This document shows, piece after piece, positions 8,028-62,477 of a stretch of 64,000 bases of DNA. Made by a program: the position numbers and the translations under genes. The number at the start of each line of letters is the position of its first letter. The first letter of the stretch is position 1. Origin of the DNA: Balanoglossus misakiensis (Eukaryota > Animalia > Hemichordata); assembly GCA_040954595.2 (NCBI GenBank), contig CM082590.2, forward strand, positions 6,572,001 through 6,636,000, in the 5' to 3' direction. The notes under the pieces are model-generated. The model searched no databases, was not told the origin of the DNA, and was given only the letters and a program-made list of their open reading frames with translations.

Positions 8028-8037
8028 TAATAAAGAA

Positions 8038-18130: not shown

Positions 18131-18132
18131 AA

Positions 18133-24433: not shown

Positions 24434-24505
24434 GGGTCGTGGTAGTCCCCCGTACAGGTATGCGTTCTCCCGGCGTTTAATACATGGCTTCCACCACATC
24501 TCTGC

Positions 24506-34097: not shown

Positions 34098-34123
34098 ATT
34101 TTGGCTACCAAAGAGTTTTCAAG
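34098..34123 (+). other. Putative 26-nt non-coding 5' UTR exon of the RepHel gene
   Basis: TTTTCTTGACAG|...TTCAAG|GTGAGT; upstream donor CCG|GTGAGT at 32918; acceptor TTTGTTCCAG directly before ATG 35771. Confidence 0.55.
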
Positions 34124-34619: not shown

Positions 34620-35495
34620 AAATGAGAAAATGTCGGGTCATTCAGGGTCAGGTCTGAAGCCTTATTTGGTTGTACATGGTGGATGTTGGGGTGTCCGTGT
34701 ATTTGTTTATGTGTGTGCAAATTCATACATGTATGCCTATCGTACTTGGACTTGATATTGCTAGTTGGTGGAAATGGTTTTGAAGTGAAATTTTATTCAG
34801 ATTTGGCTGAGTACATTGCAACGTAAATGGGAAAATGTCGGGTCATTCAGGGTCAGGTCTGAAGCCTTATTTGGTTGCACACAGTGGATGTTGGGGTGTC
34901 CGTGTATTTGTTTATGTGTGTGCAAATTCATACATGTATGCCTATCGTACTTGGACTTGATATTGCTAACTGGTAGAAATGGTTTTGAAGTGAAATTTTA
35001 TTCACATTTGTCTGAGTACATTGCAACGTAAATGGGAAAATGTCGGGTCATTCAGGGTCAGGTCTGAAGCCTTATTTGGTTGTACACGGTGGATGTTTTG
35101 GTGTCCGTGTATTTGTTTATGTGTGTGCAAATTCATACATGTATGCCTATCGTACTTGGACTTGATATTGCTAGCTGGTGGAAATGGTTTTGAAGTGAAA
35201 TTTTATTCAGATTTGGCTGAGTACATTGCAACGTAAATGGGAAAATGTCGGGTCATTCAGGGTCAGGTCTGAAGCCTTATTTGGTTGTACATGGTGGATG
35301 TTGGGGTGTCCGTGTATTTGTTTATGTCTGTGCAAATTCATACATGTATGCCTATCGTACTTGGACTTGATATTGCTAAATAGTGGAAATGATTTTTAAA
35401 GAAAATTTCACTCAGATCTGAGATTTGTCTGAGCACATTCTAATGTGAATGCCAGAATGTTAAGTCATACAGGGGTTAGGATTTAAGCCTTATCC
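34620..35495 (+). repeat. 205-bp tandem repeat, ~4 copies
   Basis: GAAAATGTCGGGTCATTCAGGGTCAGG recurs every 205 bp (ORFs 34816/35021). Confidence 0.93.
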
Positions 35496-35770
35496 TGTGT
35501 TCCAGCAGAAAAAAAGTGTGTCTGTGATACTTTGTGTGTATATGTGTCTATTTGTATACAGGCATGGGGATATGTGTGTATTATGTGTTGCTGTTGAATT
35601 ACAACCTTGTTCGGACTTAGTTTCTATAAATCACTTCTGTCTGTTAAAAGTTCCACTGCTTTTTACTGGTTATAATCACTAGTGATGTGATTTGATGAGA
35701 AGATTATCCGAAGTCTGGTGGTGAAAGGATAGTAAAAACCTAACTAGACAGTATATTTGCTTTGTTCCAG

Positions 35771-38700: not shown

Positions 38701-41700
38701 AAACACTGAGGAAAAATTGTTAGATACTGAAGGCAATGATGTAGCATCAGACACAGAAAATGGAAATGAGCCTGATGGAGATACTAATGGAATATTCATG
38801 GACACATGCTTTCAACCAGTTGACATTGGTCAGGATATTCTTGATTATCACTTTGATGATATCGCTTGTGTTGCTCCTGGCGAGGATAATAAACCTGTTA
38901 GAGTGTTGATGGAGAAGTTCAATGAAGCTAAGTGCTTTCCTGTGATATTCCCAACTGGATCACCAACATTTCACGATGATCGAGAGGTTAAGATAACAAT
39001 AGGACGATACCTGCAGAGTCGCCTCATGAATGCAAGTAACAGGTTTGCAAAAAGCACAGACTACATATTTTATGCACAATATCGTTCAGAACTTGACCAG
39101 GTTGTATCAAATGTTTCAATCGCTTTGAGAAAAGGAACTGCCAACGCTTGTGGCAAAAAGGTGACATCTGATGTTCTGACTGATGGGGATTCTTTGAGAG
39201 AGATATTGAAGTGTGATGAAGGCTACAAGTTTCTAAAACCAGTACGAGGAACTCCTCCTTATTGGCAAGCTACACAGAAAGATATTTTTGCAATGATCAG
39301 ACAGTTAGGTATACCGACATGGTTCTGTTCATTTTCTGCTGCTGACTTAAGATGGAAAGAAGTAATTGAGACTATCCTACGTGAAGAAGGTGATACACGT
39401 AATGCTGAGGATCTCGATTGGTGTGAGAAATGTGGTATCCTGAGACGAAATCCTGTAACAGCAGCAAGAATGTTTGATCATAGATTCCATTGTTTCTTGA
39501 ATGAGGTAATAATGTCACCAGCTAGTCCTATTGGGAAGATCAAAGATTATTTTTATCGAGTTGAGTTTCAGCAGCGTGGATCACCACACACTCACTGTTT
39601 GTTTTGGGTTGAAAATGCACCAAAAGTGGACAAAGATTCTGATGAGGATGTTGTTGAGTTTGTTGACAGATATGTAACATGTGAAATGCCTTCTATAGAG
39701 GAGGATGAGGTACTGCATGAGATTGTGAAAACAGTCCAGAAACACAGCTCAAGGCATTCAAAATCTTGCAAGAAAAAGGGTACTACATGTCGATTCAACT
39801 TCCCCCGACCTCCTTCAAACAAAACCTTTATATGCCACCCATCTGTCAGCATAGATACCGGAATAGAGGTAACAGATGACGATCAGTGTAAGGATGATCA
39901 AATGTCTACATCGCTGGAGAGTGAATTTGAAAATAGTTTGCTTGAGTTGGATGATACAGTATTGGTTCAGAAGAAGGCTAGACAAATTTTAGAACGAGTG
40001 TGGACATGCCTGTGTGATAAAGAGAAACAAATTGATACTATTGATGATTTGTTCAATGCAGTTGGCATATCTCAGGAGATGTTTGAACAAGCAAATGCAA
40101 TTTTGGCAAAGAAGACAAGTGTAGTTCTAAAACGTGAGCCAAGTGATGTTTGGGTGAACCAATATAATACCAACCTTCTCCGTTGCTGGAATGCAAACAT
40201 GGACATTCAGTTTGTGGTGGATGCTTATGCCTGTGTTGTGTACATTGTGTCATACATCTCTAAGGCCGAAAGAGAAATGGGTTTACTCTTGGAACATGCA
40301 CAGAAAGAGGCTAACAAAGAAGGAAATATGGATGCAAAGTCTGCCATGAAAGAGTTAGGTGGTGTATATCTGCACAACAGGGAAATAAGTGCCCAGGAAG
40401 CTGTTTATAGGGTATGTGGTTTGAAACTGAAACAATCATCACGAAAAGTTCAGTTTATTCCAACAGGAGAAAATCAAATTAAAATGAGTCTGCCATTAGC
40501 TGCAATTCAGAAGAAAATGAAAGGTGGTGATTTAGATGAGGAAGAGATATGGATGAATAGCATTGTAGACAGGTACAAGAACAGACCAAATGGGGTAGAT
40601 TTTGACAACATGTGTCTTGCAAAATTTTGTTCTGAATACAGAGTGGTTTCAAAATCAGAAATGAAAAATGTGAGTAATGAAAAACGCCACAGTCCAATAG
40701 TGAAGTTGAAAAATGATGTTGGTTACATGCAGAAAAGATCTATAAGTGATGGTGCTGTTGTTAGATATGCTAGATTTTCTGTTACCAAATGTCCAGAAAA
40801 GCACTATGGCAGTATATTACAACTGTTTCTCCCATATCGTACGGAATCACAACTGAAACCTAGTGGATTTGAATCGTTTGAGGATTTTTATTGTCTTGGT
40901 GCAGTGAAATGTGGCACTGCTTCTTTAGAAAAGGTTAAAATGATTGTAGATGCCAATAAAGCATTATTTGAAACAGAGGCTGATGCTATTGATGCAGCTG
41001 GACAATTTCTTGATGAGAATGGCCATCTTGAAGATGCATGGGCTCAAATATGTCCAGAAAATGAATTAGAACGATTGGAATGCATTGAAGAAGGTAAAAA
41101 GTGCTGTGATGATGATCCAGTGGATGACAGTGATATTCCGGACTTGGTAAAAAAACCTAAAGGTGATGATTGCCATGTAGAACTTTCAAATTCAATGAAG
41201 AAATATGAGGTTGAAGCAATGTGTAGATCTTTGAACAAGAAACAAGCAGAAGTGTTTTACACTGTCAGGAAGTGGTGTTTGGACAAAAGCAATGGCAAGA
41301 ATCCAGAACCCTTTTATTTGTTTGTCACTGGTGGTGCTGGTACTGGAAAAAGTCACTTAATCAAAAGCATATATCATGAAGCCAAACGAATTCTAGCTCG
41401 TGCAATGCCAGATGTTGATGGAATTTCAATTGCTTTAACTGCACCAACAGGAGTAGCAGCGTTTAATATACAAGGAACAACTCTCCATCATATATTCTCC
41501 ATAGCTGTTGACTCAAAGCTGCCATATCAGCCACTGCGTGAAGAAAAGCTCAATACTCTTCGTTGCAAGTTTGGTAACCTTCAAATTTTGATAATAGATG
41601 AGATTTCTATGGTAGACAAAAAGTTACTGTACTATGTTCATGGAAGACTGCGACAAATCAAACAGTCATCGGCTGAGTCACCATTTGGGAATGTGTGTGT

Positions 41701-43312
41701 TATTGCTGTGGGTGATTTTTATCAACTCCCGCCTGTGAAAGCAAGTCCACTGTGTATAGACCGTGAATCCGTCAATCTGTGGAATGACAATTTCAGTATG
41801 GTAGAATTAACTGAAATAATGAGACAGAAAGACTGTGCATTTGCAGAGGCATTAAATCGAGTAAGAGTTCACAAAAAGGGGGACACACTAAATGCTGGTG
41901 ATGTGGCAATGTTACAAAAGTGTGTTACTGGTGAAACATCTGAGGCAATGCATGTTTTTGCTACAAATGCAGAGGTTAATAGCTGTAATGTTGAAATGCT
42001 TCATTCTCAATGTTCTGATCCTGTGTGTATTGAAGCAGAAGATTTTAGCAGAAATCCTAAAAGTGGACGACTAGAAAAAAAGGAAGGTCACCATGTCAAA
42101 GTGTTCAGGACAACTTTGCCAAAGACTCTTACTCTAGCTGTTGGTGCACGAGTCCAATTGACGCATAACATTGATGTGGCTGATGGTTTGGTGAATGGCG
42201 TTTTTGGGACAGTATGTCACATTGCAGTAAAACCAAATGAAAAATTCCCAGCTGCCATTTATGTTGTATTTGATAATGAGAAAGTTGGCCAAGGATTGCG
42301 TAAAAAGAAGCCTATAACTATATCTGACCTTCCAGTAAACAGTACCCCTATAGAACCTCAGGAAATGTCTGTTGCAAGTAATGGTGGTATTAGGAGGCAG
42401 TTTCCTTTAAAACTAGCTTGGGCATGTACAGTGCATAAGGTACAGGGATTGACAGTTGATAAAGCTGTTGTCAGTTTAAAGAAGATGTTTGCACCAGGAC
42501 AGGCATATGTGGCATTGAGTCGGGTGACAACATTAGATGGTCTCATTATTAATGACTTTAACAAATCATCCATATATTGCAATGAAAAGGTCCAAGAAGC
42601 CCTGGAAACAATGCCAAAATTTCTCCCCAAGTGTACTCAGAAAGAACACAGTAATTATACATGCTCATTTGTATTGCATAATGTGGAGGGACTTGTCAAT
42701 CACATTAAAGATATTTGCAATGACAGTGAATATTTGGAAGCAGACTTCATTTGTTTGACGGAAACTTGGTTATCTGAAAAAGGAACACATTGTAATTTGC
42801 AATTGAGCGGATTTGAATTCAATCACCAACCACGATCTCAATCCTACAATCAATTTGATAGAAATACATCAAGTCTACAGTTGCAACAGCGGGGTGGTGT
42901 TGGAGTCTATAGCAAACTATGTAATGATTTTGAAATTTTGCATTTGGGTGTGTGTAATTTGGAATGTATTTCATTTTATGTCACTAAAATCAATGTTACA
43001 GTAGCTGTAGTTTATAGACCACCATCATACAAAGCAGAGGTATTCAAAAAAAGTTTGGTTTGTTTGGTGAAAGCAATGGAAAAATACCCAGGAGGAAAAC
43101 TGATCATGGGTGATTTCAATGAAGATATCTTGTCCCGGTCATCACTTGTAAAGTTCATGGAAGATCATGGTTTCAGACAATTTGTTAGCGAACCAACTAC
43201 AGAAGCTAATACATTGATTGATCATGTGTATGTGAAAGGAATAAAATATGTGACAGTAAATGTGGTACCAAAATACTTCAGCTTTCATGAAGCAATAAGC
43301 ATCAAAATATAA
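35771..43312 (+). CDS. Helentron RepHel transposase: OTU protease, Zn finger, HUH Rep, Pif1-family SF1B helicase, APE-like endonuclease
   Basis: GDGNCFFRS..WAT..NHYE (OTU); CSVC/CHTC; FCSFSAAD, VEFQQRGSPHTHCL, YIVSYISK (Rep); GGAGTGKS, IIDEIS, GDFYQLPPV, HKVQGLT, YVALSR (helicase); HNVEGL, LTETW, YRPP, GDFN, IDH, FHEA (APE). Uninterrupted. Confidence 0.97.
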   Translation: MPRSRYWRKKRSQKNEDTVVSEDPVLLKNRIAIEHKEGPALSKNRNRNEYKEGPALSKNRNRNEFKEGPALSKNRNRNEYKEGPALSKNRNRNEYKEGPALSKNRNRNEFKEGPALSKNRNMDKIRKSDRENESTKVNNEIFETENQSVDKTEGSNEILQEHSLDNDSSDDLYIGSGTGDSVYSFSPLTFDVCEQLCCKFDIVDKNNIDIFNKLGSVTIGDPCNYKSIIGDGNCFFRSLSYCISGTERNHGVIRTAIVNHLKANEEVYSGWVRLDGYTSVADYIAKSRMDHLGTWATETEILATTNLFNVNIFVYSFDSWWKHSCNIINKNNVDRGVGIYLNHRNRNHYEVVECVKTPQLENCHCTHIDCNEVVPIENVTGECMGVTDNECSKQIGLKKEFHLDDVFATQCFAPVRNKKRGRAIGERLKKKLRREKYESERGKLNELNVPSSLKSSKASKQYERYQTNSEYRDNIKSDSRKRYHEDVLYRENKKRRLAGRYDHDLVYREVQKTVCAEQCLAKYEKVPLYREHKKSESAAQCVDKYKKDQTFREQKKRQSAEQCVDKYKKDQTFREQKKRQNAALCVDKYKKDQTFREQKKRQCVDKYKKDQTFREQKKRQSAAQCVDKYKKDQTFREQKKRQSAAQCVHKYKKDLEFREQKKRQTAAVFADKFQNDQKFREHKKSQNAAQFLDKYNRDEEFQNWTKKKCLERYQQDHVYKQTVLQRRRTERKVTKIEKGNIERVIIDFRNQISVGPNCVCSVCHRRLFRKQVIVCKMDNYVSKGGLCEMNANKCITQEYVHNCSELCIVDCPLKSSAASKLWICHTCHSKLLRAEMPVQAAANNLDVKPIPDELKCLNSLEQHLIALHIPFMKMMALPRGGQNGVHGPVVCVPSNIEKATSILPRGELEDQMIKVKLKRKLSYKGCYQYQFVNKGHIQNALEYLQKNNKWYNDVKFNLTWENTLEKTEEKSNGESNENTEEKLLDTEGNDVASDTENGNEPDGDTNGIFMDTCFQPVDIGQDILDYHFDDIACVAPGEDNKPVRVLMEKFNEAKCFPVIFPTGSPTFHDDREVKITIGRYLQSRLMNASNRFAKSTDYIFYAQYRSELDQVVSNVSIALRKGTANACGKKVTSDVLTDGDSLREILKCDEGYKFLKPVRGTPPYWQATQKDIFAMIRQLGIPTWFCSFSAADLRWKEVIETILREEGDTRNAEDLDWCEKCGILRRNPVTAARMFDHRFHCFLNEVIMSPASPIGKIKDYFYRVEFQQRGSPHTHCLFWVENAPKVDKDSDEDVVEFVDRYVTCEMPSIEEDEVLHEIVKTVQKHSSRHSKSCKKKGTTCRFNFPRPPSNKTFICHPSVSIDTGIEVTDDDQCKDDQMSTSLESEFENSLLELDDTVLVQKKARQILERVWTCLCDKEKQIDTIDDLFNAVGISQEMFEQANAILAKKTSVVLKREPSDVWVNQYNTNLLRCWNANMDIQFVVDAYACVVYIVSYISKAEREMGLLLEHAQKEANKEGNMDAKSAMKELGGVYLHNREISAQEAVYRVCGLKLKQSSRKVQFIPTGENQIKMSLPLAAIQKKMKGGDLDEEEIWMNSIVDRYKNRPNGVDFDNMCLAKFCSEYRVVSKSEMKNVSNEKRHSPIVKLKNDVGYMQKRSISDGAVVRYARFSVTKCPEKHYGSILQLFLPYRTESQLKPSGFESFEDFYCLGAVKCGTASLEKVKMIVDANKALFETEADAIDAAGQFLDENGHLEDAWAQICPENELERLECIEEGKKCCDDDPVDDSDIPDLVKKPKGDDCHVELSNSMKKYEVEAMCRSLNKKQAEVFYTVRKWCLDKSNGKNPEPFYLFVTGGAGTGKSHLIKSIYHEAKRILARAMPDVDGISIALTAPTGVAAFNIQGTTLHHIFSIAVDSKLPYQPLREEKLNTLRCKFGNLQILIIDEISMVDKKLLYYVHGRLRQIKQSSAESPFGNVCVIAVGDFYQLPPVKASPLCIDRESVNLWNDNFSMVELTEIMRQKDCAFAEALNRVRVHKKGDTLNAGDVAMLQKCVTGETSEAMHVFATNAEVNSCNVEMLHSQCSDPVCIEAEDFSRNPKSGRLEKKEGHHVKVFRTTLPKTLTLAVGARVQLTHNIDVADGLVNGVFGTVCHIAVKPNEKFPAAIYVVFDNEKVGQGLRKKKPITISDLPVNSTPIEPQEMSVASNGGIRRQFPLKLAWACTVHKVQGLTVDKAVVSLKKMFAPGQAYVALSRVTTLDGLIINDFNKSSIYCNEKVQEALETMPKFLPKCTQKEHSNYTCSFVLHNVEGLVNHIKDICNDSEYLEADFICLTETWLSEKGTHCNLQLSGFEFNHQPRSQSYNQFDRNTSSLQLQQRGGVGVYSKLCNDFEILHLGVCNLECISFYVTKINVTVAVVYRPPSYKAEVFKKSLVCLVKAMEKYPGGKLIMGDFNEDILSRSSLVKFMEDHGFRQFVSEPTTEANTLIDHVYVKGIKYVTVNVVPKYFSFHEAISIKI
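35875..36133 (+). repeat. In-frame 45-bp coding repeat (~6 x KEGPALSKNRNRNEY/F)
   Basis: Read in DNA and protein. Confidence 0.95.
37320..37860 (+). repeat. In-frame coding repeat of mostly 69-bp units (QCVDKYKKDQTFREQKKRQSAA-like)
   Basis: Protein periodicity with one shortened unit; charged, probably helical region. Confidence 0.8.
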
Positions 43313-46300
43313 TTATTTAGACTTGTGTTTTGAAATAAAATCAGTGTGATTAGAAAAATAAAGATATAACCCACCGCGAGGAATAACCTTATTCAGGTAC
43401 ATGATTCAATAACGGCCTTTGTTACGGAAAAGCTGAGTGATGGTACCAGACCTTGTTGCTTCACCAGGGCAAAGTGTGTGCTTCTGGTGGTAGGACATGA
43501 CCGGGCAAGTGATCTGATTTGGCGGGCGACTTGTGCTTGTCGCTGCGCTCCTTGCCTGGTCATACTGCCAGTAGCACACTATAGTGCACAGCGATGAGGT
43601 CTGGGAGTGAGACTAGATAAAAACAAAACTACCCAGCAAGAGGTTAAATGTTCTTATACTGGCTCCTATGTTAAATCAATTCAAATACTTAATTGTCAAC
43701 AATAGCTGTGAAACTTGTCTTCATGAGGCTCATCAATCAGTTATAAATTCAGGATAAATGACATTTTGATAACAATGTATATACACAAATAAGACAACAT
43801 GATGAAAAGCATATCTGCAGCACTGGATAAAACTAAAAAAGGATGAAACTTGAATTTAAAATAGATATAGCTGTTGGCAAAAGTATTTTCCAAAGGAATT
43901 GTTTCCTGTTAAATTGATCTCTGTAGCATGTCCATAATTGGAGATTTTAAAAGAATTTTTAAAGTGGGTAGTCGGGATCTGTAGCAATAGTGTGTGCATG
44001 TCGTTCAACTGCCTTATGATATAATCTGAGAAAGCTGACATCATCATTTTACATAACATGTATTTACCTTACCGCAAAATAATATTGACCACCAGATTGC
44101 TTTTGATAAGGTTACGATAAGGTAGCGATACACCAACTGCAAATAATTTGAAGCAAATTAACTACAGAAGCTAATAAATTGATTGATCTTGTGTCTGAGA
44201 AAGGAATAGAAAGTGTGACGGTAAATGTTGTACCAAAATACTTTAGCTTTCATGAAGCAATAAGGATCAAAATATTAATTTAGAGTTGTGTTTTGAAATA
44301 ACATAAGTGTTATTAGAAAAATAAAGATATAACCCATCACGAGGAAAAACCTCATTCACGTACATGATTTAATAATGGCCTTTGTTACGGAAAAGCTGAG
44401 TGATGGTACCAGACCTTGTTGCTTCACCAGGGCAAAGTGTGTGCTTCTGGTGGTAGGACATGACCGGGCAAGTGATCTGATTTGGCGGGCGACTTGTGCT
44501 TGTCGCTGCGCTCCTTGCCTGGTCATACTGCCAGTAGCACACTATAGTGCACAGCGATGAGGTCTGGGAGTGAGACTAGATAAAAACAAAACTACCCAGC
44601 AAGAGGTTAAATGTTCTTATACTGGCTCCTATGTTAAATCAATTCAAATACTTAATTGTCAACAATAGCTGTGAAACTTGTCTTCATGAGGCTCATCAAT
44701 CAGTTATAAATTCAGGATAAATGACATTTTGATAACAATGTATATACACAAATAAGACAACATGATGAAAAGCACATCTGCAGCACTGGATAAAACTAAA
44801 AAAGGATGAAACTTGAATTTAAAATAGATATAGCTGTTGGGAAAAGTATTTTCCAAAGGAATTGTTTCCTGTTAAATTGATCTCTGTAGCATGTCCATAA
44901 TTGGAGATTTTAAAAGAATTTTTAAAGTGGGTAGTCGGGATCTGTAGCAATAGTGTGTGCATGTCGTTCAACTGCCTTATGATATAATCTGAGAAAGCTG
45001 ACATCATCATTTTACATAACATGTATTTACCTTACCGCAAAATAATATTGACCACCAGATTGCTTTTGATAAGGTTACGATAAGGTAGCGATACACCAAC
45101 TGCAAATAATTTGAAGCAAATTAACTACAGAAGCTAATAAATTGATTGATCTTGTGTCTGAGAAAGGAATAGAAAGTGTGACGGTAAATGTTGTACCAAA
45201 ATACTTTAGCTTTCATGAAGCAATAAGGATCAAAATATTAATTTAGAGTTGTGTTTTGAAATAACATAAGTGTTATTAGAAAAATAAAGATATAACCCAT
45301 CACGAGGAAAAACCTCATTCACGTACATGATTTAATAATGGCCTTTGTTACGGAAAAGCTGAGTGATGGTACCAGACCTTGTTGCTTCACCAGGGCAAAG
45401 TGTGTGCTTCTGGTGGTAGGACATGACCGGGCAAGTGATCTGATTTGGCGGGCGACTTGTGCTTGTCGCTGCGCTCCTTGCCTGGTCATACTGCCAGTAG
45501 CACACTATAGTGCACAGCGATGAGGTCTGGGAGTGAGACTAGATAAAAACAAAACTACCCAGCAAGAGGTTAAATGTTCTTATACTGGCTCCTATGTTAA
45601 ATCAATTCAAATACTTAATTGTCAACAATAGCTGTGAAACTTGTCTTCATGAGGCTCATCAATCAGTTATAAATTCAGGATAAATGACATTTTGATAACA
45701 ATGTATATACACAAATAAGACAACATGATGAAAAGCACATCTGCAGCACTGGATAAAACTAAAAAAGGATGAAACTTGAATTTAAAATAGATATAGCTGT
45801 TGGGAAAAGTATTTTCCAAAGGAATTGTTTCCTGTTAAATTGATCTCTGTAGCATGTCCATAATTGGAGATTTTAAAAGAATTTTTAAAGTGGGTAGTCG
45901 GGATCTGTAGCAATAGTGTGTGCATGTCGTTCAACTGCCTTATGATATAATCTGAGAAAGCTGACATCATCATTTTACATAACATGTATTTACCTTACCG
46001 CAAAATAATATTGACCACCAGATTGCTTTTGATAAGGTTACGATAAGGTAGCGATACACCAACTGCAAATAATTTGAAGCAAATTAACTACAGAAGCTAA
46101 TAAATTGATTGATCTTGTGTCTGAGAAAGGAATAGAAAGTGTGACGGTAAATGTTGTACCAAAATACTTTAGCTTTCATGAAGCAATAAGGATCAAAATA
46201 TTAATTTAGAGTTGTGTTTTGAAATAACATAAGTGTTATTAGAAAAATAAAGATATAACCCATCACGAGGAAAAACCTCATTCACGTACATGATTTAATA

Positions 46301-49300
46301 ATGGCCTTTGTTACGGAAAAGCTGAGTGATGGTACCAGACCTTGTTGCTTCACCAGGGCAAAGTGTGTGCTTCTGGTGGTAGGACATGACCGGGCAAGTG
46401 ATCTGATTTGGCGGGCGACTTGTGCTTGTCGCTGCGCTCCTTGCCTGGTCATACTGCCAGTAGCACACTATAGTGCACAGCGATGAGGTCTGGGAGTGAG
46501 ACTAGATAAAAACAAAACTACCCAGCAAGAGGTTAAATGTTCTTATACTGGCTCCTATGTTAAATCAATTCAAATACTTAATTGTCAACAATAGCTGTGA
46601 AACTTGTCTTCATGAGGCTCATCAATCAGTTATAAATTCAGGATAAATGACATTTTGATAACAATGTATATACACAAATAAGACAACATGATGAAAAGCA
46701 CATCTGCAGCACTGGATAAAACTAAAAAAGGATGAAACTTGAATTTAAAATAGATATAGCTGTTGGCAAAAGTATTTTCCAAAGGAATTGTTTCCTGTTA
46801 AATTGATCTCTGTAGCATGTCCATAATTGGAGATTTTAAAAGAATTTTTAAAGTGGGTAGTCGGGATCTGTAGCAATAGTGTGTGCATGTCGTTCAACTG
46901 CCTTATGATATAATCTGAGAAAGCTGACATCATCATTTTACATAACATGTATTTACCTTACCGCAAAATAATATTGACCACCAGATTGCTTTTGATAAGG
47001 TTACGATAAGGTAGCGATACACCAACTGCAAATAATTTGAAGCAAATTAACTACAGAAGCTAATAAATTGATTGATCTTGTGTCTGAGAAAGGAATAGAA
47101 AGTGTGACGGTAAATGTTGTACCAAAATACTTTAGCTTTCATGAAGCAATAAGGATCAAAATATTAATTTAGAGTTGTGTTTTGAAATAACATAAGTGTT
47201 ATTAGAAAAATAAAGATATAACCCATCACGAGAAAAAACCTCATTCACGTACATGATTTAATAATGGCCTTTGTTACGGAAAAGCTGAGTGATGGTACCA
47301 GACCTTGTTGCTTCACCAGGGCAAAGTGTGTGCTTCTGGTGGTAGGACATGACCGGGCAAGTGATCTGATTTGGCGGGCGACTTGTGCTTGTCGCTGCGC
47401 TCCTTGCCTGGTCATACTGCCAGTAGCACACTATAGTGCACAGCGATGAGGTCTGGGAGTGAGACTAGATAAAAACAAAACTACCCAGCAAGAGGTTAAA
47501 TGTTCTTATACTGGCTCCTATGTTAAATCAATTCAAATACTTAATTGTCAACAATAGCTGTGAAACTTGTCTTCATGAGGCTCATCAATCAGTTATAAAT
47601 TCAGGATAAATGACATTTTGATAACAATGTATATACACAAATAAGACAACATGATGAAAAGCACATCTGCAGCACTGGATAAAACTAAAAAAGGATGAAA
47701 CTTGAATTTAAAATAGATATAGCTGTTGGCAAAAGTATTTTCCAAAGGAATTGTTTCCTGTTAAATTGATCTCTGTAGCATGTCCATAATTGGAGATTTT
47801 AAAAGAATTTTTAAAGTGGGTAGTCGGGATCTGTAGCAATAGTGTGTGCATGTCGTTCAACTGCCTTATGATATAATCTGAGAAAGCTGACATCATCATT
47901 TTACATAACATGTATTTACCTTACCGCAAAATAATATTGACCACCAGATTGCTTTTGATAAGGTTACGATAAGGTAGCGATACACCAACTGCAAATAATT
48001 TGAAGCAAATTAACTACAGAAGCTAATAAATTGATTGATCTTGTGTCTGAGAAAGGAATAGAAAGTGTGACGGTAAATGTTGTACCAAAATACTTTAGCT
48101 TTCATGAAGCAATAAGGATCAAAATATTAATTTAGAGTTGTGTTTTGAAATAACATAAGTGTTATTAGAAAAATAAAGATATAACCCATCACGAGAAAAA
48201 ACCTCATTCACGTACATGATTTAATAATGGCCTTTGTTACGGAAAAGCTGAGTGATGGTACCAGACCTTGTTGCTTCACCAGGGCAAAGTGTGTGCTTCT
48301 GGTGGTAGGACATGACCGGGCAAGTGATCTGATTTGGCGGGCGACTTGTGCTTGTCGCTGCGCTCCTTGCCTGGTCATACTGCCAGTAGCACACTATAGT
48401 GCACAGCGATGAGGTCTGGGAGTGAGACTAGATAAAAACAAAACTACCCAGCAAGAGGTTAAATGTTCTTATACTGGCTCCTATGTTAAATCAATTCAAA
48501 TACTTAATTGTCAACAATAGCTGTGAAACTTGTCTTCATGAGGCTCATCAATCAGTTATAAATTCAGGATAAATGACATTTTGATAACAATGTATATACA
48601 CAAATAAGACAACATGATGAAAAGCACATCTGCAGCACTGGATAAAACTAAAAAAGGATGAAACTTGAATTTAAAATAGATATAGCTGTTGGCAAAAGTA
48701 TTTTCCAAAGGAATTGTTTCCTGTTAAATTGATCTCTGTAGCATGTCCATAATTGGAGATTTTAAAAGAATTTTTAAAGTGGGTAGTCGGGATCTGTAGC
48801 AATAGTGTGTGCATGTCGTTCAACTGCCTTATGATATAATCTGAGAAAGCTGACATCATCATTTTACATAACATGTATTTACCTTACCGCAAAATAATAT
48901 TGACCACCAGATTGCTTTTGATAAGGTTACGATAAGGTAGCGATACACCAACTGCAAATAATTTGAAGCAAATTAACTACAGAAGCTAATAAATTGATTG
49001 ATCTTGTGTCTGAGAAAGGAATAGAAAGTGTGACGGTAAATGTTGTACCAAAATACTTTAGCTTTCATGAAGCAATAAGGATCAAAATATTAATTTAGAG
49101 TTGTGTTTTGAAATAACATAAGTGTTATTAGAAAAATAAAGATATAACCCATCACGAGAAAAAACCTCATTCACGTACATGATTTAATAATGGCCTTTGT
49201 TACGGAAAAGCTGAGTGATGGTACCAGACCTTGTTGCTTCACCAGGGCAAAGTGTGTGCTTCTGGTGGTAGGACATGACCGGGCAAGTGATCTGATTTGG

Positions 49301-49928
49301 CGGGCGACTTGTGCTTGTCGCTGCGCTCCTTGCCTGGTCATACTGCCAGTAGCACACTATAGTGCACAGCGATGAGGTCTGGGAGTGAGACTAGATAAAA
49401 ACAAAACTACCCAGCAAGAGGTTAAATGTTCTTATACTGGCTCCTATGTTAAATCAATTCAAATACTTAATTGTCAACAATAGCTGTGAAACTTGTCTTC
49501 ATGAGGCTCATCAATCAGTTATAAATTCAGGATAAATGACATTTTGATAACAATGTATATACACAAATAAGACAACATGATGAAAAGCACATCTGCAGCA
49601 CTGGATAAAACTAAAAAAGGATGAAACTTGAATTTAAAATAGATATAGCTGTTGGGAAAAGTATTTTCCAAAGGAATTGTTTCCTGTTAAATTGATCTCT
49701 GTAGCATGTCCATAATTGGAGATTTTAAAAGAATTTTTAAAGTGGGTAGTCGGGATCTGTAGCAATAGTGTGTGCATGTCGTTCAACTGCCTTATGATAT
49801 AATCTGAGAAAGCTGACATCAACATTTTACATAACATGTATTTACCTTACCGCAAAATAATATTGACCACCAGATTGCTTTTGATAAGGTTACGATAAGG
49901 TAGCGATACACCAACTGCAAATAATTTG
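43175..49928 (+). repeat. 963-bp tandem repeat, 7 units, starting inside the RepHel 3' end
   Basis: ORF markers at 43856, 44819, 45782, 46745, 47708, 48671, 49634. Confidence 0.96.
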
Positions 49929-50180
49929 TCTAACATGTTGTGATTTAACTTTCAGAAAAAGATATAAACTCTGGGGGAGGACAGGGTAATTAAGACTAGG
50001 TTGTCTACACGCCTTAGTGAGTTGTCTGTCTGTCTGTCTGTCTGAAGATAAACTCAGGCGAAGGATTGAGTCATTTAAGACAGGCTGCCTGGCTGTCATA
50101 ATGTTATATCTGTCTGTATGTCTTTGTCATGTATGCACTGGCATATGTACATTTGTAACATATGTACATGTGTATATGCA

Positions 50181-50182
50181 TG

Positions 50183-50216
<34 letters not shown>

Positions 50217-50322
50217 CATGCAGGCATGTATGTATGTATGTATGTATGTATGTATGTATGTATGTATGTATGTATGTATGTATGTATGTATGTATGTATG
50301 TATGTATGTATGTATGTATGTA
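50181..50322. repeat. Compound (GT)n/(GTAT)n microsatellite
   Basis: Read directly. Confidence 0.97.
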
Positions 50323-53300
50323 GTCATTTTCTATGTATATATAAAATCTATGTTAAATATAAAAAGTATTTTAGAACAATTTACATTGCTGCTTGGTATG
50401 ATATAATTACAATTTAACAATTTTATTGCTACACCATGGGGTATTCACTTCTGTGTGTAAATTTGTTTGTATGATCATATGGTATGCAATATTGAGTACA
50501 TGTACATAATTCACCTGCTTTTAATACTGTGTAATTTAACAATTTTATTGCTACACCATGGGGTATTCACTTCTGTGTGTACATTTGTTTGTATGATCAT
50601 ATGGTATGCAATATTGAGTACATGTACATAATTCACCTGCTTTTAATACTGTGTGGTATAGCGTATATATTGCATTTTGTAAAAAGAAACATGAAATACT
50701 GTATTTTGAACAACTTATTGTACTGGATGATTTTTTATTACAGTAAAGATATTTGCCTGCATTACGAGAGTAATAGAAATAATTTAAGTTGTACTTTTTA
50801 TTCTGAAATAAGTTTCTTGATGTTTGGTATTCCATGTAAATAGCCAATTTTGAGTCAAGATAGTTATTTTATAACATGATTTGAAATTGTCATTTGTATT
50901 ATCAAGAATGGTTTCAATCAAATAATTATGTATTTTCATTTTGTGTTGACTTAATATTCAAAACTGGACCTGTTGTTTGACTTATTGAAACACGGTAAAC
51001 TGTATAGGGTCACATACACACCATTAAGACGGTTCTGAAGCGTCTCAGATCAGATACCATCTTAAAGAATCAGGTGTGGACAGTGTTTAGTGGTTCTGAA
51101 ATTGCTTAGATTTGAGACAGCATTTGCCGGTCAGACCGGAGCCGGTGTAAAGAATTACTGTAACACCTCTCCGCAACCCATTGTCCATGGGACTAAGCCT
51201 CAGCGCCCCTACTTATGGTGGGTTCACATCTGGGCCCATGGCCGGGCAAAACGTGTCACTGATGATTGTGACAAGACAAGCTAATCTTTAGTCCCCGTTC
51301 ACATTGTGATTGGCACAGTCCTGGCCATTGGTGTCTCGCCAACCTTTCACCTTATAAAGCAGAACCATGTTGGTCCTCTAATGGTTGTTCATACGATTTT
51401 CTTCATTGTCAAATGATGGACTACACTATTATGTCAATCTGGGACCAGATTCGGACAAAACGTGTCCACACACACCGTAGTGGGACCAGAGTCGGACCAG
51501 AGTAGGATACAAACCAACCCATTCAACTGGGACAAAAATTGTCCGGACAAAGGTCGGCCAGACCCGTTCTGAGTATTGTGAACAGCCTAATAAACTGTGT
51601 GTGTGTGCAGCGACTTAAAGGATTAATGCTCTGTGTTTACCAGTACAGTACTGTACTGGTGAACTATGCTTGTATATCAACATACAAGATTGAACATTCA
51701 CATAAATAATTTATGATGTCCACCCAGTTTTCCACTGTGTGCTAAACTTTTATCCATGTATTTGAATATATAGCCAGTGTTGCAAACTATTTAGACCACA
51801 TGGATCTTGGCATGAGATCTCAGAGTGTAGTATTCTTTCATGTATAACTGCCATGTACAATGCCATGGCAATGTTATTTGTCAAAAGGAAACGTACTTTG
51901 GTTCAGGTATTCATTTCGTATCACACACAAAATCACAACTTTACTTACAGCAAAGGGGTATTTACTGACCCCTTTTTACGTTATGCACTGACAGCATATT
52001 GCACAGTCAGTTACTTAATGCAGGTACTCTCTGTATTCTTGAATGATATCAAAAAGGGCAAACAAAAGCTACTTTGTACCTTTAACAAATGATCTGCAAT
52101 TAAGGCTTGTACACAATCAAGTTGTCAGATTACGTTTAATGACTATTTCTGTCAATGCTATGTCCCGTTTGATTTTCTAAAATTGTGCACAACAAGAAAT
52201 GTCTTAATGGATATGCTGAACTGTATTTTAAAATTCAAGTAGACTTTTGTCAAGGTCAGATTTGCTTTGTTGTATACTAGATATGTCCTCATAATACATA
52301 TATGTTCTTAAGTATTTGTCGTGTTAAATATGCACTGTATCAAATGGATGTTCAAACAATTTAGAAAGATGCTAACTTAATTTCACTAATCCTCTTTTTC
52401 AGAAATTAAATGGTGTCTGAACTTATTATTTAGTTATTATTATTAGTTATTATTATACTTGGCCATTGTCAGCTGGATATAATTGCTTAAAACTGTGAAC
52501 AATTGTAATCTGTGTTTGTTTAGTTTCTTGCAATAACAAAAACCAACCTCAACTGATGTCAACCATTTGTTTTATGTGCTTCAGATAAACCTGTAAGTTG
52601 AATCATTGCTTTTTAACATAAGCCTTTTACTGTAGCCATCTCTTTATTTTACTCTACATTATAGGTCGCTGACCACTTAAAACAAAATGTCCACGTCTCA
52701 CTTTCGTGTCTCTCTGTACTCTGTACAATCTATCTGGTTTGGTAGATTTTCCGGATACCAAGATAAAGAAAACTTGAAGGTCTAATACACAAATATTTCT
52801 CAAATAATGTTGTCACATACTAGTGGAGATCCAAAACACAAAACATGTAAGCCCTCTTATTTTTAAGGATACTATTTGTTGTAGGCAAAATAAGGAGGTG
52901 AAGTATAAGAACGCATTAAGTGTTTCAACATATCACGATAATGAAAACTAAAAGGTCATCCCAAGGTTACCCAAAAATTTGTCAAAAATTTGGTCCCATA
53001 CTGGTCCCAGCTTCCCTTCTGCCACTATTGGTCAGCGTAAAATTTAATGTGGTAAGGTGTCCGACAACATGAGTAAAGCGGTATCTGCCCTGGATGCCGA
53101 GATTTGTAAAATTAGGTCAAAGTTCACAAAAAAATTGCTCCAAAATATTTTGATGCCATACTGGTCCATGCCCAACTGAAATGGAACTGCTAGCTGTGTT
53201 GGTTAGCCTGGAATTAGGTATGTGCATAATTAATGAGGTTAAGAAGGTGTCACAGATTAACCCAAAATTTAGCTTTTCATTTTTGTCCCATCCCTAAAAA

Positions 53301-55937
53301 AACAAAGGATGTAACTCCTGTAAAGGTCAGGTCAGGTCACCCTAAATTTTGGCAAAAGATTGTGACCCCATATTGGTCCATGTTCAACAAAAACCAGACC
53401 TCTATTCCATTTGGTAGGCCTGGAATCAGGTATGCACGTAATTAATGAGTCAAGCAGGTGTCACAGGTGACCCCAAAATTTGCCTTTTAATTTTGATCCC
53501 ATCCCTCGAAAGGACAAGGCTGTAGCTACTGTTGGTGCCGAGATATGGTAAAGTAGGTTAAAAGTCACCTCAGTTCATCCAAAATTTGGGCAAAAACTTT
53601 TGAATTCAACAAAAACACACCTCTAGCCCTATTGGTTCGCTTGGAATTATATATGCGAATAATTAATGGGGTAAATTGTGGGATTCGGTGAGGTGTTCCA
53701 TCCCTCCAAATGCTAAGCCTGTACCTGCAGTGGATGTCAAGATATGAGAAAGTAGGTAAAAGGTCACTGAGGTCACCCAAAATTCTTTGACCAAATACTG
53801 GTCCATGTCCAAAAAAAACAAAAACTCTAGATCTATTAGTTCGTCTGTAATTAGGTATGCGCATACTTAATGAGCTAAGCAGGTGTCACAGGTGACCCAA
53901 AACTTTGGCTTTTCATTATGGCCCCATACCTCCAAACGCCAAGGCTGTATCTGCTGTAGATGTCGAGATATGCAAAAGTAGGTCAAAGGTCACCCGAGGT
54001 CATCCAACATTTGGGCAAAATATTTTGACCCCATACTGATCCATGTCCAGAAAAAAACAAACCTCTAGGTCATTTGGTTCATCTGTAATTAGGTATGCGC
54101 ATATTTAATGAGGTCAGCAGAGGTCAAAGGGGTCATGAAAAGTAGCAAAAATTTTTGATCACATACAAAACCACATACATCAAAAACCAAACTTATAGCC
54201 CTATTGGTTAGCCTGGAATTAGATATGCAGAAAAATGATGCGTCAAAAGTAGGTCAAAGGTCATTGCCAAAATTACCAAAATATTTATAGCTTATTCTTG
54301 TCATATGATGATTCATATCCATAAAAAGAATTTCTGTGCTATCAATTTTTAGGCTAGAAACAGAATTTTTACTTTTTAATCGTTGTTCACAAAATCCAAT
54401 ATGGCCGCCAAAATCTTCGACCAATCACAATGATCTTCGCAAACTTGATAGACATCTGTTTAATGACCACACACACCAAATCTTGTGACTCGGTTATCGC
54501 CGGTTCTTGAGAAGAAGATTTTTGAAATTTTACTAGGGTTTTTCGAAAATCCAATATGGCCGCCATAATCTTCGATGTTTAGTGCTGATATAGTGTTAAG
54601 TATGTCAAAGGTCACCAACAATTTGGGCAGAAAATTTTGACCCATAGTGGTCCATGTCCAACAAAAACCAGACCTCTAGCCCTTTTGGTTAGCCCGGAAT
54701 TAGGTATGCACATAAATAATGAGTTAAGCAGGTGTCACAGGTGACCCAAAACTTTGGCTTTTCATTATGGCCCTATACCTCCAAACACCAAGGCTGTATC
54801 TGCTGTGGATGTCAAGATATGCCAAAGTAGGTCAAAGGTCACCCGAGGTCACCCAACATTTGGGCAAAAAATTTTGACCCCATACTGGTCCATGTATAAC
54901 AAAAACAAAACCTCTAGGTCTATTGGTTCATCATTAATTAGGTATGCGCATATTTAATGAGGTCACCAGAGGTCAAAGGGGTCATGAAAAGTAGCAAAAT
55001 TTTTTGATCACATACAAATCCACATACATCAGAAACCAAACTTATAGCCCTATTGGTTAGCCTGGAATTAGATATGCAGAAAAATGATTCGTCAAAAGTA
55101 GGTCAAAGGTCATTGCCAAAATTACCAAAATATTTATAGCTTATTCTTGTCATATGATGATTCATATCCATAAAAAGAATTTCTGTGCTATCAATTTTTA
55201 GGCTAGAAAAGGAATTTTTACTTTTTAATCGTTTTTCACAAAATCCAATATGGCCGCCATAATCTTCGACCAATCAAATTCCCCTTCGCAAACTTGATAG
55301 ACATCTGTTTAATGACCACACACACCAAATCTTGTGACTCGGTTATCGCCCGTTCTGGAGAAGAAGATTTTTGAAGTTTTACTATGGTTTTTCGAAAATC
55401 CAATATGGCCGCCATAATCTTCGACCAATCACAATGATCTTCGCAAACTTGATAGACATCTGTTAGGTGACCACATACCCCAAACGGCGTGACTCGGTTA
55501 TCGCCGGTTCTGGAGAAGAAGATTTTTGAAATTTAAGCCAGATTTCAGAAAAAAAATTGTAGCAAAAAAACTGCAACATTGTCAGCATAATTTCCAATTA
55601 CAAAAATGATGGGCAGAAGGTAGTCTACCAGCATGCCAAATTTGAAGTTGATCTGACTTGTAGTTTCTGATATCTGAGATTTGCATTTTTTTAGAAAATC
55701 CAAGATGGCCGCCAGGTCACGTGACTAGTTAAAAATTCACAGGTTCAATGCACGACTACTCATTGACCTTGACCACTGTAGCAAGTTTCAGAAGTGTACC
55801 TGCAGCGGTGTCTGAGATCTAGAGCGACAAAGAATTGACACAAGAATAAAGAAAGAAAGAAAGAAGAAAGAAGGAAAGACAGAAAAACCCCAACGAAACC
55901 AATAGGGCCCAAGCGCTGGTATGCGCTTGGGCCCTAA

Positions 55938-57206: not shown

Positions 57207-60200
57207 TTAAAGCTGCAAGCAGCATTGTCGGGCCCAAGCGCTGATCCGGAATTATATATGCACAGTATGAATGACAAGAAACAGAATGCTCTATCAGGTT
57301 TTTTATCTCATGACATAACAAGGCCATGTGTTTTTTTGGTGCAGAAATAGAGTAAAGTAGGTCAAAGGTCACCTGAGGTCACCCAAATTTTGGGAAATTT
57401 TTTTGGACCCATATTCGTCCATGTCCAACAAAAACCAAAACTCTAGCTCTATTGGTTCGCCTGTAATTAGGTATGTGCATATTTAATGAGGTCAGCAGGT
57501 GTCACAGGTGACCCAAAAATGTGGCTTTACATTTTGGTCCTATCCTTCCAAATGCCAAGGCTGTATCTGCTCTGGATGCTGAGATATGCGAAAGTAGGTC
57601 AAAGGTCACCAGAGGTCATCAACATTTGGGCAAAACATGTTGACCCCATACTGGTCCATGTCCAACAAAAACCAAACAACTAGCTCTATTGGTTCGCCTG
57701 TAATTAGCTATGCACATAATTAATGAGGTCAACAGAGGTCAAAGGGGTCATGAAAAGTAGCAAAATATTTTGATCACACACTAATCCACATACATCAAAA
57801 ACTAAACGTCTAGCCCTATAGGTTAGCCTGGAATTAGATATGCAGAAATAATAACGTGCGAAAATTAGGTCAAAGGTCATGTGAAAAATCGCCAAAAATG
57901 TGTAACATATTTTAGTCATATGGCGATTGATATCCATGAAAAGAATTTGTATGCTATTAATTTTTAGACTAGGAAAAGGAATTTCAATTTTTCACTGCTT
58001 TTTACAAAATCCAATATGGCCGCCATAATCTTCGACCAATCACAATGCTCTTTGCAAACTTGATAGACATCAGTGTAGTGACCATACTCCCCGAATCTTG
58101 CGACTCAGTTATCGCCCGTTCTGGAGAAGAAGATTTTTGGAGTTTTACTATGGTTTTTCGAAAATCCAATATGGCCGCCATAATCTTCGACCAATCACAA
58201 TGCTTCTTATCAAACTTGATAGACATCTGTTAGGTGACCACATACACCAAACCCCGTGACTCGGTTATCACCGGTTCTGGAGAAGAAGATTTTTGAAATT
58301 TAAGCCAGATTTCAGAAAAAAAAATTGTAGCAAAAAAACTGCAACATTTACAGCAAAATATCCAATTACAAAAATAATGGGCATATGGTAGTCTACCTGC
58401 ATGCCAAATTTGAAGTCGATCTGACTTGTAGTTTCTGAGATCTGAGATTTGCATTTTTTCAGAAAATCCAATATGGCCACCAGGTCACGTGACTAATTAA
58501 AAATTCAAGAGTTCAATGCACGACTACCCATTGACCTTGACCACTGTAGCAAGTTTGAGAAGTGTACCTGCAGCGGTGTCTGAGATCTAGAGCGACAAAG
58601 AAATGACACAAGAATAAAGAAAGAAGAAAGAAAGACAGAATTAAAGCTGCAAGCAGCATTGTCGGGCCCAAGCGCTGATCTCGAATTATATATGCACAGT
58701 ATGAATGAGAAGAAACAGAATTTTCTATCTGGTGTATTATCTCATGACATAACAAGGACGTGTGTATTTTTGCTGCTGAAATAGGGTGAAGTAGGTCAAA
58801 GGTCACCTGAGGTCACCCAACATTTGGGCAAAATTTCTTGACCCATACTGGTCCATGTCCAACAAAAACCAAAACTCTAGCTCTATTGGTTCGCCTGTAA
58901 TTAGGTATGTGCATGTTTAATGAGGTCAGCAGGTGTCACAGGTGACCCAAAAATGTGGCTTTACATTTTGGTCCCATCCTGCAAAATGCCATGGCTGTAT
59001 CTGCTCTGGATGCTGAGATATGCGAAAGTAGGTCAAAGGTCACCCAAAATTTGGGCAACAAATTTTGACCCCATATTGGTCCATGTCCAACAAAAACCAA
59101 ACCTCTAGCTCTATTGGTTCGCCTGTAATTAGGTATGTGCATGTTTAATGAGGTCAGCAGGTGTCACAGGTGACCCAAAAATGTGGCTTTACATTTTGGT
59201 CCCATCCTGCCAAATGCCAAGGCTGTATCTGCTCTGGATGCTAAGATATGCGAAAGTAGGTCAAAGGTCACCAGAGGTCATCCAACATTTGGGCAAAAAA
59301 TTTTGACCCCATACTGGTCCATTTCCAACAAAAACCAAACCACTAGCTTTATTGGTTCGCCTGTAATTAGCTATGCACATAATTAATGAGGTCAACAGAG
59401 GTCAAAGGGGTCATGAAAAGTAGCAAAATATTTTGATCACACACTAATCCACATGCATCAAAAACCAAACGTCTAGCCCTATAGGTTAGCCTTGATATAG
59501 TTATGCAGAAATAATAACGTGTAACATATTTTAGTCATATGACGATTGATATCCATGAAAAAAATTTGTATGCTATCAATTTTTAGACTAGGAAAAGGAA
59601 TTTCAATTTTTCACTGCTTTTTACAAAATCCAATATGGCCGCCATAATCTTCGACCAATCACAATGCTCTTTGCAAACTGGATAGACATCAGTGTAGTGA
59701 CCATACTCCCCGAATCTTGCGACTCAGTTATTGCCCGTTCTGGAGAAAAAGATTTTTGCAGTTTTACTATGGTTTTTCGAAAATCCAATATGGCCGCCAT
59801 AATCTTCGACCAATCACAATGCTTCTTATCAAACTTGATAAACATCAGTTAGGTGACCACATACCCCAAATCCCGTGACTCGGTTATCGCCGGTTCTTGA
59901 GAAGAAGATTTTTGAAGTTTTAGTTAGATTTTTTGGAAATCCAATATGGCGGCCAAAGTCACGTGACCGCTCGAAATTTTATTATCAAACTTTGTAGGGC
60001 AGAGGCCATGTGTACTATGTACCAAATTTGAACTTGATTTGCCTTGTAGTTTTTGAGAAGAAGCCATTTACATTTTTTCAGAAAATCCAATATGGCCGCC
60101 AGGTCACGTGACTAATTAAGTATTCACAAGTCACTGCACATCTACTCATTGACCTTGACCACTGTAGCAAGTTTGAGCAGTGTACCTGCAGTAGTTTCAG

Positions 60201-60349
60201 AGATTTAGTTGGCCGAAGAAATGACACAAGAATAAAGAAAGAAAAATTCCAACGAAACCAATAGGGCCCAAGCGCTTGTGCGCGCTTGGGCCCTAAAAAC
60301 CCCAACGAAACCAATAGGGCCCAAGCGCTGGTATGCGCTTGGGCCCTAA
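57207..60349 (-). mobile_element. Subtype C unit split by a nested insertion (body 57207-58640, terminus 60297-60349)
   Basis: GACAGAA + AAACCCC rebuilds GACAGAAAAACCCC. Confidence 0.8.
58641..60296 (-). mobile_element. Complete subtype C unit nested in the previous unit
   Basis: Left hairpin at 58641; right palindrome GGGCCCAAGCGC-TTGTGC-GCGCTTGGGCCCTAA. Confidence 0.82.
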
Positions 60350-62477
60350 TTAAAGCTGCGAGCAGCATTGTCGGGCCCAAGCGCTGATCTTGAATTATAT
60401 ATGCACAGTATGAATGAGAAGAAACAGAATTTTCTATCGGATGTATTATCGCATGACATAACAAGGATGTGTGTATTATTGCTGCTGAAATAGGGTGAAG
60501 TAGGTCAAAGGTCACCTGAGGTCACCCAACATTTGGGCAATTTTTTTTTACCCATACTGGTCCATGTCCAACAAAAACCAAAACTCTAGCTCTATTGGTT
60601 CGCCTGTAATTAGGTATGTGCATATTTAATGAGGTCAGCAGGTGTCACAGGTGACCCAAAAATGTGGCTGTACATTTTGGCCCCATCCTGCCAAATGCCA
60701 AGGCTGTATCTGCTCTGGATGCTGAGATATGCGAAAGTGGGTCAAAGGTCACCTGAGGTCACCAAACATTTGGGCAAAAATGTTTGACCCATACTGGTCC
60801 TTGTCAAACAAAAACTAAAACTCTAGCTCCATTGGTTCGCCTGTAATTAGGTATGTGCATAGTTAATGAGGTCAGCAGGTGTCACAGGTGACCCAAAAAT
60901 GTGGCTGTACATTTTGGCCCCATCCTGCCAAATGCCAAGGCTGTATCTGCTCTGGATGCTGAGATATGCGAAAGTGGGTCAAAGGTCACCTGAGATCACC
61001 AAACATTTGGGCAAATTTTTTGACCCATACTGGTCCATGTCAAACAAAAACTAAAACTCTAGCTCTATTGGTTCGCCTGTAATTAGATATGTGCATATTT
61101 AATGAGGTCAGCAGGTGTCACAGGTGACCCAAAAATGTCGCTGTACATTTTTGCCCCATCCTGCCAAATGCCAAGGCTGTATCTGCTCTGGATGCTGAGA
61201 TATGCGAAAGTGGGTCAAAGGTCACCTGAGGTCACCAAACATTTGGGCAAAATTTTTTGACCCATACTGGTCCATGTCAAACAAAAACTAAAACTCTAGC
61301 TCTATTGGTTCGCCTGTAATTAGGTATGTGCATATTTAATGAGGTCAGCAGGTGTCACAGGTGACCCAAAAATGTGGCTGTACATTTTGGCCCCATCCTG
61401 CCAAATGCCAAGGCTCTATCTGCTCTGGATGCTGAGATATGCGAAAGTAGGTCAAAGGTCACCAGAGGTCACCCAACATTTGGGCAAAAAATTTTGTTCC
61501 CATAGTGGTCCATGTCCAACAAAAACCAAACCTCTAGCTCTATTGGTTCGCCTGTAATTAGCTATGTGCATAATTAATGAGGTCAGCAGAGGTCAAAGGG
61601 GTCATAAGAAGTAGCAAAATATTTTGATCACACACTAATCCACATGCATCAAAAACCAAACGTCTAGCCCTATAGGTTAGCCTGGAAATAGATATGCAGA
61701 AATAATAACGTGTGAAAAGTAGGTCAAAGGTCATGTGAAAAATCGCCAAAAAATTGTAACATAATTTAGTCACATGACGATTGATATCCATAAAAAGAGT
61801 TTGTATGCTATCAATTTTTAGACTAGGAAAAGGAATTTCAATTTTTCACTGCTTTTTACAAAATCCAATATGGCCGCCATAATCTTCGACCAATCACAAT
61901 GCTCTTTGCAAACTTGATAGACATCAGTGAAGTGACCAAACTCCCCGAATCTTGCGACTCAGTTATCGCCCGTTCTGGAGAAGAAGATTTTTTGAGTTTT
62001 ACTATGGTTTTTCGAAAATCCAATATGGCCGCCATAATCTTCGACCAATCACAATGATCTTCGCAAACTTGATAGACATCAGTTAGGTGACCACATACAC
62101 CAAACCCCGTGTCTCGGTTGTCACCGGTTCTGGAGAAGAAGATTTTTGAAATTTTGACCAGATTTCAGAAAAAAAATTGTAGCAAAAAAACTGCAACATT
62201 GACAGCATAATTTCCAATTACAAAAATGATGGGCAGAAGGTAGTCTACCTGCACGCCAAATTTGAAGTCGATCTGACTTGTAGTTTCTGAGATCTGAGAT
62301 TTGCATTTTTTCAGAAAATCCAAGATGGCCGCCAGGTCATGTGACTAATTAAAAATTCAAGGGTTCAATGCACGACTACTCATTGACCTTGACCACTGTA
62401 GCAAGTTTCAGAAGTGTACCTGCAGTGGTCTCTGAGATCTAGAGCGACAAAGAATTGACACAAGAATAAAGAAAGAA
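60350..62477 (-). mobile_element. Subtype C unit with an expanded ~237-bp module (palindromic end displaced)
   Basis: Left terminus at 60350; module recurs near 60630, 60868, 61104, 61341. Confidence 0.8.

Follow-up and report, generated by a model that had tools for sequence, protein, structure and literature searches.

The closest described relatives of the elements analysed here are the HINE and DINE-1 elements, whose published plan comprises a 5' subTIR with an inverted repeat, a microsatellite, central repeats and a 3' subTIR with a palindrome, and for which T-rich insertion between two T residues (T|T) without a target site duplication (TSD) is the published rule (Thomas et al. 2014, PMC4067079; Yang and Barbash 2008, PMC2374699; Cg_HINE, PMC7492417). 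In HUH rolling-circle transposition, as set out in PMC8788227, RepHel nicks a target strand and joins a single-stranded copy to it with no duplication. Stacked short 5' ends (<200 bp) have been ascribed to self-insertion for FoHeli, HLE2 elements (Chellapan et al. 2016, PMC5148889; PMC13342296), and HelenXT233 is described with a double left end, LTS1/LTS2 (PMC11417382). Drosophila transposable elements are reported to insert twice at one site, giving tandem head-to-tail units (McGurk and Barbash 2018, PMC5932611). The present locus bears on how Helitron-type transposases choose their targets, as it gives base-exact self-insertion offsets beside an apparently intact transposase gene.

The window, by which we mean the whole 64,000-nt stretch of DNA analysed, is animal-type DNA full of related units of 1.2-2.1 kb, all of which have the ends of an autonomous element. 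On the + strand the left end consists of TTAAAGC, a 5-bp palindrome and a subTIR, and the right end of an A-rich microsatellite, a 15-18 nt spacer and a 14-bp hairpin ending in CCCTAA; the canonical reading is on the - strand, and '5' end' here denotes the hairpin end. All five 5' ends that were folded formed 14-bp stems (z -4.8 to -8.9). In the 5' hairpins at 29100-29157 (folded as 29100-29160) and 57160-57206, which represent two subfamilies, paired changes preserve the 14-bp stem, and these stem changes correspond to the subTIR variants seen at the 3' ends of the C and B types. As in the published HINE/DINE-1 descriptions, the insert at 58641-60296 has a 5' subTIR with a nearby inverted repeat and a 3' subTIR with a short palindrome, and it is non-coding, with an autonomous partner that has the same termini and an EN domain. 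The units of the window likewise share the near-5' microsatellite, central tandem repeats and T|T insertion without duplication. Tandem repeats of 155 bp and 228-237 bp occur in the window, with a 4-bp repeat at 55848-55885. Insertion into the element's own 5' microsatellite, with offsets, sets the present case apart from those published descriptions.

Both junctions of the insert could be read in the sequence, and the five A's that the initial annotation had counted across them are in place. The host flank GACAG-AA runs up to 58640, the insert begins with TTAAAGC at 58641, and its terminus CCCTAA at 60296 is followed by AAA-CCCC from 60297, leaving 2+3 = 5 target A's and no target duplication. 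Since all five head-to-tail junctions of the window read CCCTAA|TTAAAGC alone, the two terminal A's are the element's own. Reading the A's as an AA TSD was rejected, as the head-to-tail junctions keep two A's without a target and 16491 has one A. Excising the insert in silico rebuilt the empty site: compared with the intact end at 55855-55937, its final 61 nt are identical, and over 68 nt there is 1 mismatch. The stub differs from the insert's own end at 5/53 positions, so it is the host's end and not a duplicate of the insert end. Measured from the first base of the host's 14-bp hairpin stem, the cut lies 18 nt away. The insert holds no ORF of 100 aa wholly within it, one mechanical 145-aa ORF spans its right junction, and its short 3' palindrome folds no better than shuffles (z +1.6). 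These observations confirm a true nested insertion of a small non-coding rolling-circle transposon in a sister copy (Table 1).

Table 1. Coordinates of the insertions and related features in the window
Feature	Position	Strand	Remarks
Insert: non-autonomous Helentron (HINE), A-type, 1656 bp	58641..60296	-	5' end 60296, 3' end 58641; ends read, empty site rebuilt
Host HINE, body and 3' end; A-type 3' end, C-type tail	57207..58640	-	Cut in T-rich tail
Displaced host 5' stub, 53 nt: 18 nt of tail and terminal hairpin	60297..60349	-	Equals 55885-55937, no mismatch
Split five-A tract, left two A's	58639..58640	+	Right three at 60297-60299
Insert 5' subTIR and inverted repeat: 14-bp stem, 6-nt loop	60262..60295	-	-19.1 kcal/mol, z -6.5
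Host 5' hairpin, 14-bp stem	60315..60348	-	Folding z -5.5
Insert 3' end	58641..58675	-	subTIR 58664-58675, 5-bp palindrome 58646-58657, terminal bases
Next HINE, head-to-tail against host stub	60350..62477	-	Own tail cut by unit at 62478
C-type HINE 16492-29157 nested in host 15201-16491 (first event), with stub 29158-29211	16492..29211	-	Split 1+4, offset -19
A-type HINE in host 12347, 2-A cut at 13781	13782..15200	-	Closing end outside window or unassignable
Autonomous Helentron, same termini as HINE units; likely transposase source	30632..55937	-	
2516-aa ORF: OTU, DUF6570, Rep (HUH, Y2), PIF1 helicase, APE-type endonuclease	35762..43312	+	

The finding is real, well resolved and modestly new. 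Self-insertion near 5' ends is already described for fungal Helitron2, and as a single event the insertion is an ordinary Helentron insertion. In the published accounts of FoHeli and HelenXT233 self-insertion was inferred from end structure, whereas here the flanks, the empty site and the base-level offsets are read; unlike FoHeli, which is fungal, the Helentron here belongs to an animal, and its stubs measure 53-61 nt. In the literature passages covered, PMC13085455 among them, no offset histogram for Helentron self-insertion appeared.

The insertion had been proposed to be independent of another nested event cut one base away, and the two inserts do belong to different subfamilies, C-type in the first event and A-type at 58641, with heads 83% identical. 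In the first event GACAG-A at 16491 and the stub from 29158 give the 1+4 split, with 2 mismatches in 61 nt. The 1-nt difference between the events is independent of how the terminal A's are assigned, since both closed events total seven A's, split 2/5 at 58641 and 1/6 at 16492. The same two-A cut had also been noted at 13781, where the flank indeed ends in GACAG-AA, and the independence of this junction from 58641 is probable. Within 450 nt of the junction, each flank of 13782 shares 91-96% identity with its counterpart at 58641, a level that is family background. We built trees of 14 heads (15201, which carries an early internal deletion, was omitted) and 14 tails. Among the heads 13782 falls together with 9431 and 60350 (support 97/91), and among the tails its host pairs with 15201 (support 100/97); neither joins the partners of 58641. 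From these groupings the 13782 junction as a copy of the 58641 junction appears disfavoured.

Scanning the whole window with up to 3 mismatches allowed, we found 15 element 3' ends, 10 directly after a cut tail and 5 directly after a resident 5' end; 0 of the 15 lay in a resident body, and all 15 were on one strand. Of the 322 AA/TT sites in a unit, 19 fall within its final 50 nt, or about 6% once the end junction is included, so the placing of all 15 ends in tails or at end junctions goes beyond chance. Thus the offsets are not uniform over the TT dinucleotides of the units, the distribution that had been named as speaking against a hotspot. Together with two cuts marked by a stub only, the ten marked by a 3' end make 12 tail cuts. 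Two-sided offsets from the stem were -18 (58641), -19 (16492) and -26 (stub at 7967), and the unambiguous one-sided offsets -18 (13782), -18 (9431) and -21 (8038). The unit at 63692 gave -24 (read by eye, as the script returned no exact match) and the stub at 8028, on the assumption of a B-type host, about -31; -18 is probable for 15201 and 10859, and 30632 and 62478 are cut at -33 or -45, or at -26 with a short tail. Overall the commonest cut is at -18, the nearest to the stem, and the farthest lies at about -45 nt. The A5 tract is surely cut in 3/12 (58641, 16492 and 13782) and probably in two more (15201 and 10859). The initial annotation had seen in this tract a hotspot with 1-nt slack; the 1-nt difference is real, but the tract is not the determinant, as 9431 is cut at -18 within a B-type tail that has no A5, and the slack amounts to tens of bases. 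The hotspot takes in a whole zone and is not confined to the A5 tract. A single fixed target site does not agree with this spread either, nor with the existence of dispersed copies.

The same 3' motif was sought in metagenome contigs and occurred in at least 121 distinct places (relatives L001-L121), many of these loci coming from few assemblies; viral_contigs and genome_contigs held none (0 and 0). A 17-nt 3' terminal motif is unchanged, among the matches listed, across HINE families of other animals' contigs with otherwise different subTIRs. Most of the relatives listed are dispersed, far from any hairpin. Among those listed, 6 of the 99 that are not head-to-tail and have enough flank come after the tail or end of an element (L046, L048, L072, L091, L103 and the inverted L055); L053 and L090, which match one other locus away from the cut, were left uncounted, and two loci were too short. 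For the relatives an absence of body insertions carries little weight, because element bodies are only partly covered in the contigs. Family motifs gave 29 rows of 5' hairpins in relatives, of which L045 is false and L055 inverted, so not same-strand ends. At L055:1045-1100 (minus strand) the relative sits in inverted orientation, 18 nt from the host stem. Dispersed copies in unique DNA also occur in the same organism, on contigs 581 and 1102 nt long, each fitting at one end only. Self-targeting is therefore not obligate, given dispersed copies both there and in most relatives listed. The contigs of the same organism come from one sample, possibly the window's source, and so give no independent support, nor does their depth give copy number; no piece listed from them has 31 letters on both sides of 60296/60297, and none counts as bridging.

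The flanks of these relatives describe a target preference. Left flanks among those listed show A peaks at -1/-2, -7/-8 and -13/-14, and in the 96 non-redundant relatives that are not head-to-tail, among the matches listed, A stands at -1 in 92 and at -2 in 82. A/T richness extends over 16 nt of the flanks in the matches listed, which are strongly A-rich on the + strand, and right flanks of dispersed copies start W-A-A in 4/5. From 88-89 dispersed sites, with 13-14 self-associated loci left out, we derived a target profile, which was built on families of other animals, treats positions as independent and draws its right half from 5 flanks. Under the profile, the part of a unit's weight assigned to the tail rises from 6% to 20-40% one-sided and 30-82% two-sided. 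Its top site in the A-type tail is -18 (51%), a position that receives 1-5% in tails of the C type and 0.3% in those of the B type. Cuts at -18/-19 were expected in about 2-8% of C-type and about 1% of B-type tails and were seen in 3/6 and 1/4. The probability that all 9 scored hosts are tail-cut under the profile was about 8e-4, and that of 3/6 C-tail cuts at -18/-19 about 0.007 or less, both post hoc and from small samples. Across 51 kb, 186 body sites score at least as high as the median used site; none is used. The built-in T-rich tail explains most of the clustering, and the remaining excess would come either from shortcomings of the profile or from a contribution of the hairpin; the bias left over favours, post hoc, the hairpin-near edge of the tail.

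On balance we favour the view that insertions go to the T-rich tail next to the 5' hairpin because, within each copy, this tail best matches the family's general T-rich preference. The Rep-helicase of the family's autonomous Helentron likely placed the 1656-bp copy in its sister's tail, where RepHel would nick the T-rich strand before TT (or T) and join a single-stranded copy. Self-insertions are likely so many here because each copy carries the family's favourite landing sequence. As every copy brings a new tail, clusters would grow by repeated nesting, with short 5' stubs pushed to one side, and the 2+3 and 1+4 splits may be ordinary local slack among neighbouring T|T bonds. Against this stand the leftover of the profile, the unused body sites and the one shared orientation of the 15 ends. 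The locus shows such elements building satellite-like clusters and double 5' ends.

The five head-to-tail junctions may have arisen by re-use of a site, with a newcomer landing at the resident's 3' junction; this is possible because the flank of an occupied site is still T-rich. Under the profile, insertion behind the resident's 5' hairpin scores -8.7 bits and re-use of its 3' junction +8.9 to +9.6 bits. The autonomous copy that adjoins a host tail at 30631 looks very young, which would agree with re-use, if we infer the order of insertion correctly. Among the relatives listed 20/121 are head-to-tail, with 16 distinct junction strings; by a reasoned estimate this is more than re-use of dispersed sites by chance would seem to give. 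A concatemer origin of the window's head-to-tail junctions was ruled out, since the partners are different copies or subfamilies (autonomous/B, B/A, and A/A at 91%). Tandem insertions of Drosophila Helitrons were reportedly described by Dias et al. in 2016. As in the published account of Drosophila tandem elements, site preference brings different copies to one site; unlike there, where target duplication keeps the site, no duplication is found here, and re-use would depend on the surviving T-rich flank.

A possible, if unlikely, alternative is that the hairpin anchors the insertion, with RepHel binding the resident 5' subTIR/hairpin like a donor end and nicking the first T-rich stretch outside its footprint, 18-26 nt off, so that sequence only fine-tunes the bond. 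The mode of -18 recurs over three different tail sequences, one of them without A5, although cuts at about -31 and -26/-33/-45 exist. Two-sided stubs in relatives lie at -21, -22 and -24, and at -18 in the inverted L055 (4/4 among the matches listed), and contigs of the same organism hold A-type stubs at -18 and -19, in additional pairings of subfamilies; even so, the dispersed majority of the relatives listed has no hairpin near it. The excess over the sequence profile would also fit such anchoring, but the tests are post hoc and comprise at most 12 cuts. Sequence and distance are confounded, since in every family some 15-18 nt separate the stem from the start of the T-rich tract. Heringer and Kuhn speculate, in the text of PMC8788227, that RepHel first binds target DNA structures. 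A ruler-type self-targeting, in which RepHel recognises the resident 5' hairpin and integrates at a roughly fixed 18-26 nt beyond it, producing nested satellite-like clusters, we consider doubtful; if true, the hairpin ruler would mean that a eukaryotic rolling-circle transposon chooses its targets by a structure-guided rule. With donor ends, natural targets and enzyme all at hand, the locus makes a built-in landing pad and guidance by the hairpin directly testable against each other.

It is quite improbable that a few old junctions were spread by unequal exchange, conversion or two-5'-end composites, which would make the 2+3 fit partly luck. Composites with two 5' ends have been proposed for FoHeli in PMC5148889, and the window holds 15 3' ends against 9 5' ends as well as mosaic units (57207-58640 and 60350-62477) that combine an A-type 3' end with a C-type tail. 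In contigs of the organism richest in window words the six-A (1+4) end-plus-stub occurs in 3 and 5 contigs at high summed depth, as an amplified double-end subfamily would give. Yet each closed event matches its own left flank base for base (2+3 in one, 1+4 in the other), neither the inserts nor the hosts of 13782 and 58641 pair as sisters, and the near-identical hosts 12347 and 15201 (tails 98.3%) hold different inserts one base apart. That 60297-60349 is a local 53-bp tandem copy of the end of 58641-60296, the unit merely following a truncated neighbour, is hardly credible despite the 53-bp, 2-copy repeat that TRF calls at 60242-60349 (90% matches), as the second copy, with its five differences, equals the C-type end predicted by the host tail.

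The RepHel gene near these self-insertions appears intact from its sequence, and its ORF runs opposite to the canonical 5'-3' direction of the element termini. Within the 2516-aa product we take residues 1268-1278 to be the HUH motif, 1494 the Y2 and 1857 the Walker A, from the motif patterns of these families. Its endonuclease domain (residues 2290-2516) keeps ETW and GDFN and ends with SFH as its last motif, where APE enzymes usually have SDH, which leaves endonuclease activity uncertain. The ORF matches Helraiser 7lcc (E 1.8e-20) and is like HLE2/Helentron in combining Rep and PIF1 helicase with DUF6570 and an APE-type endonuclease; the reversed orientation is also described for Helentron-Da-40. 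A second autonomous copy opens the window with its last 7966 bp, 99.94% identical and with its terminus at the identical base. Downstream of the ORF, inside the autonomous Helentron, lie about 7 copies of a 963-bp tandem repeat that are 98-99.9% alike (43179-49928; 1-1957). HINE 16492 contains a Ty3/gypsy-type LTR retrotransposon (17489-28425) with TG...CA ends and a 4-bp AATT target duplication, whose LTRs are identical over a 645-nt match and which has gag-like, RT/RNase H and integrase frames. Between its RT/RNase H and integrase frames lie two inverted blocks of a 69-bp tandem repeat (23703-25767), which are probably a separate foldback-like insertion.
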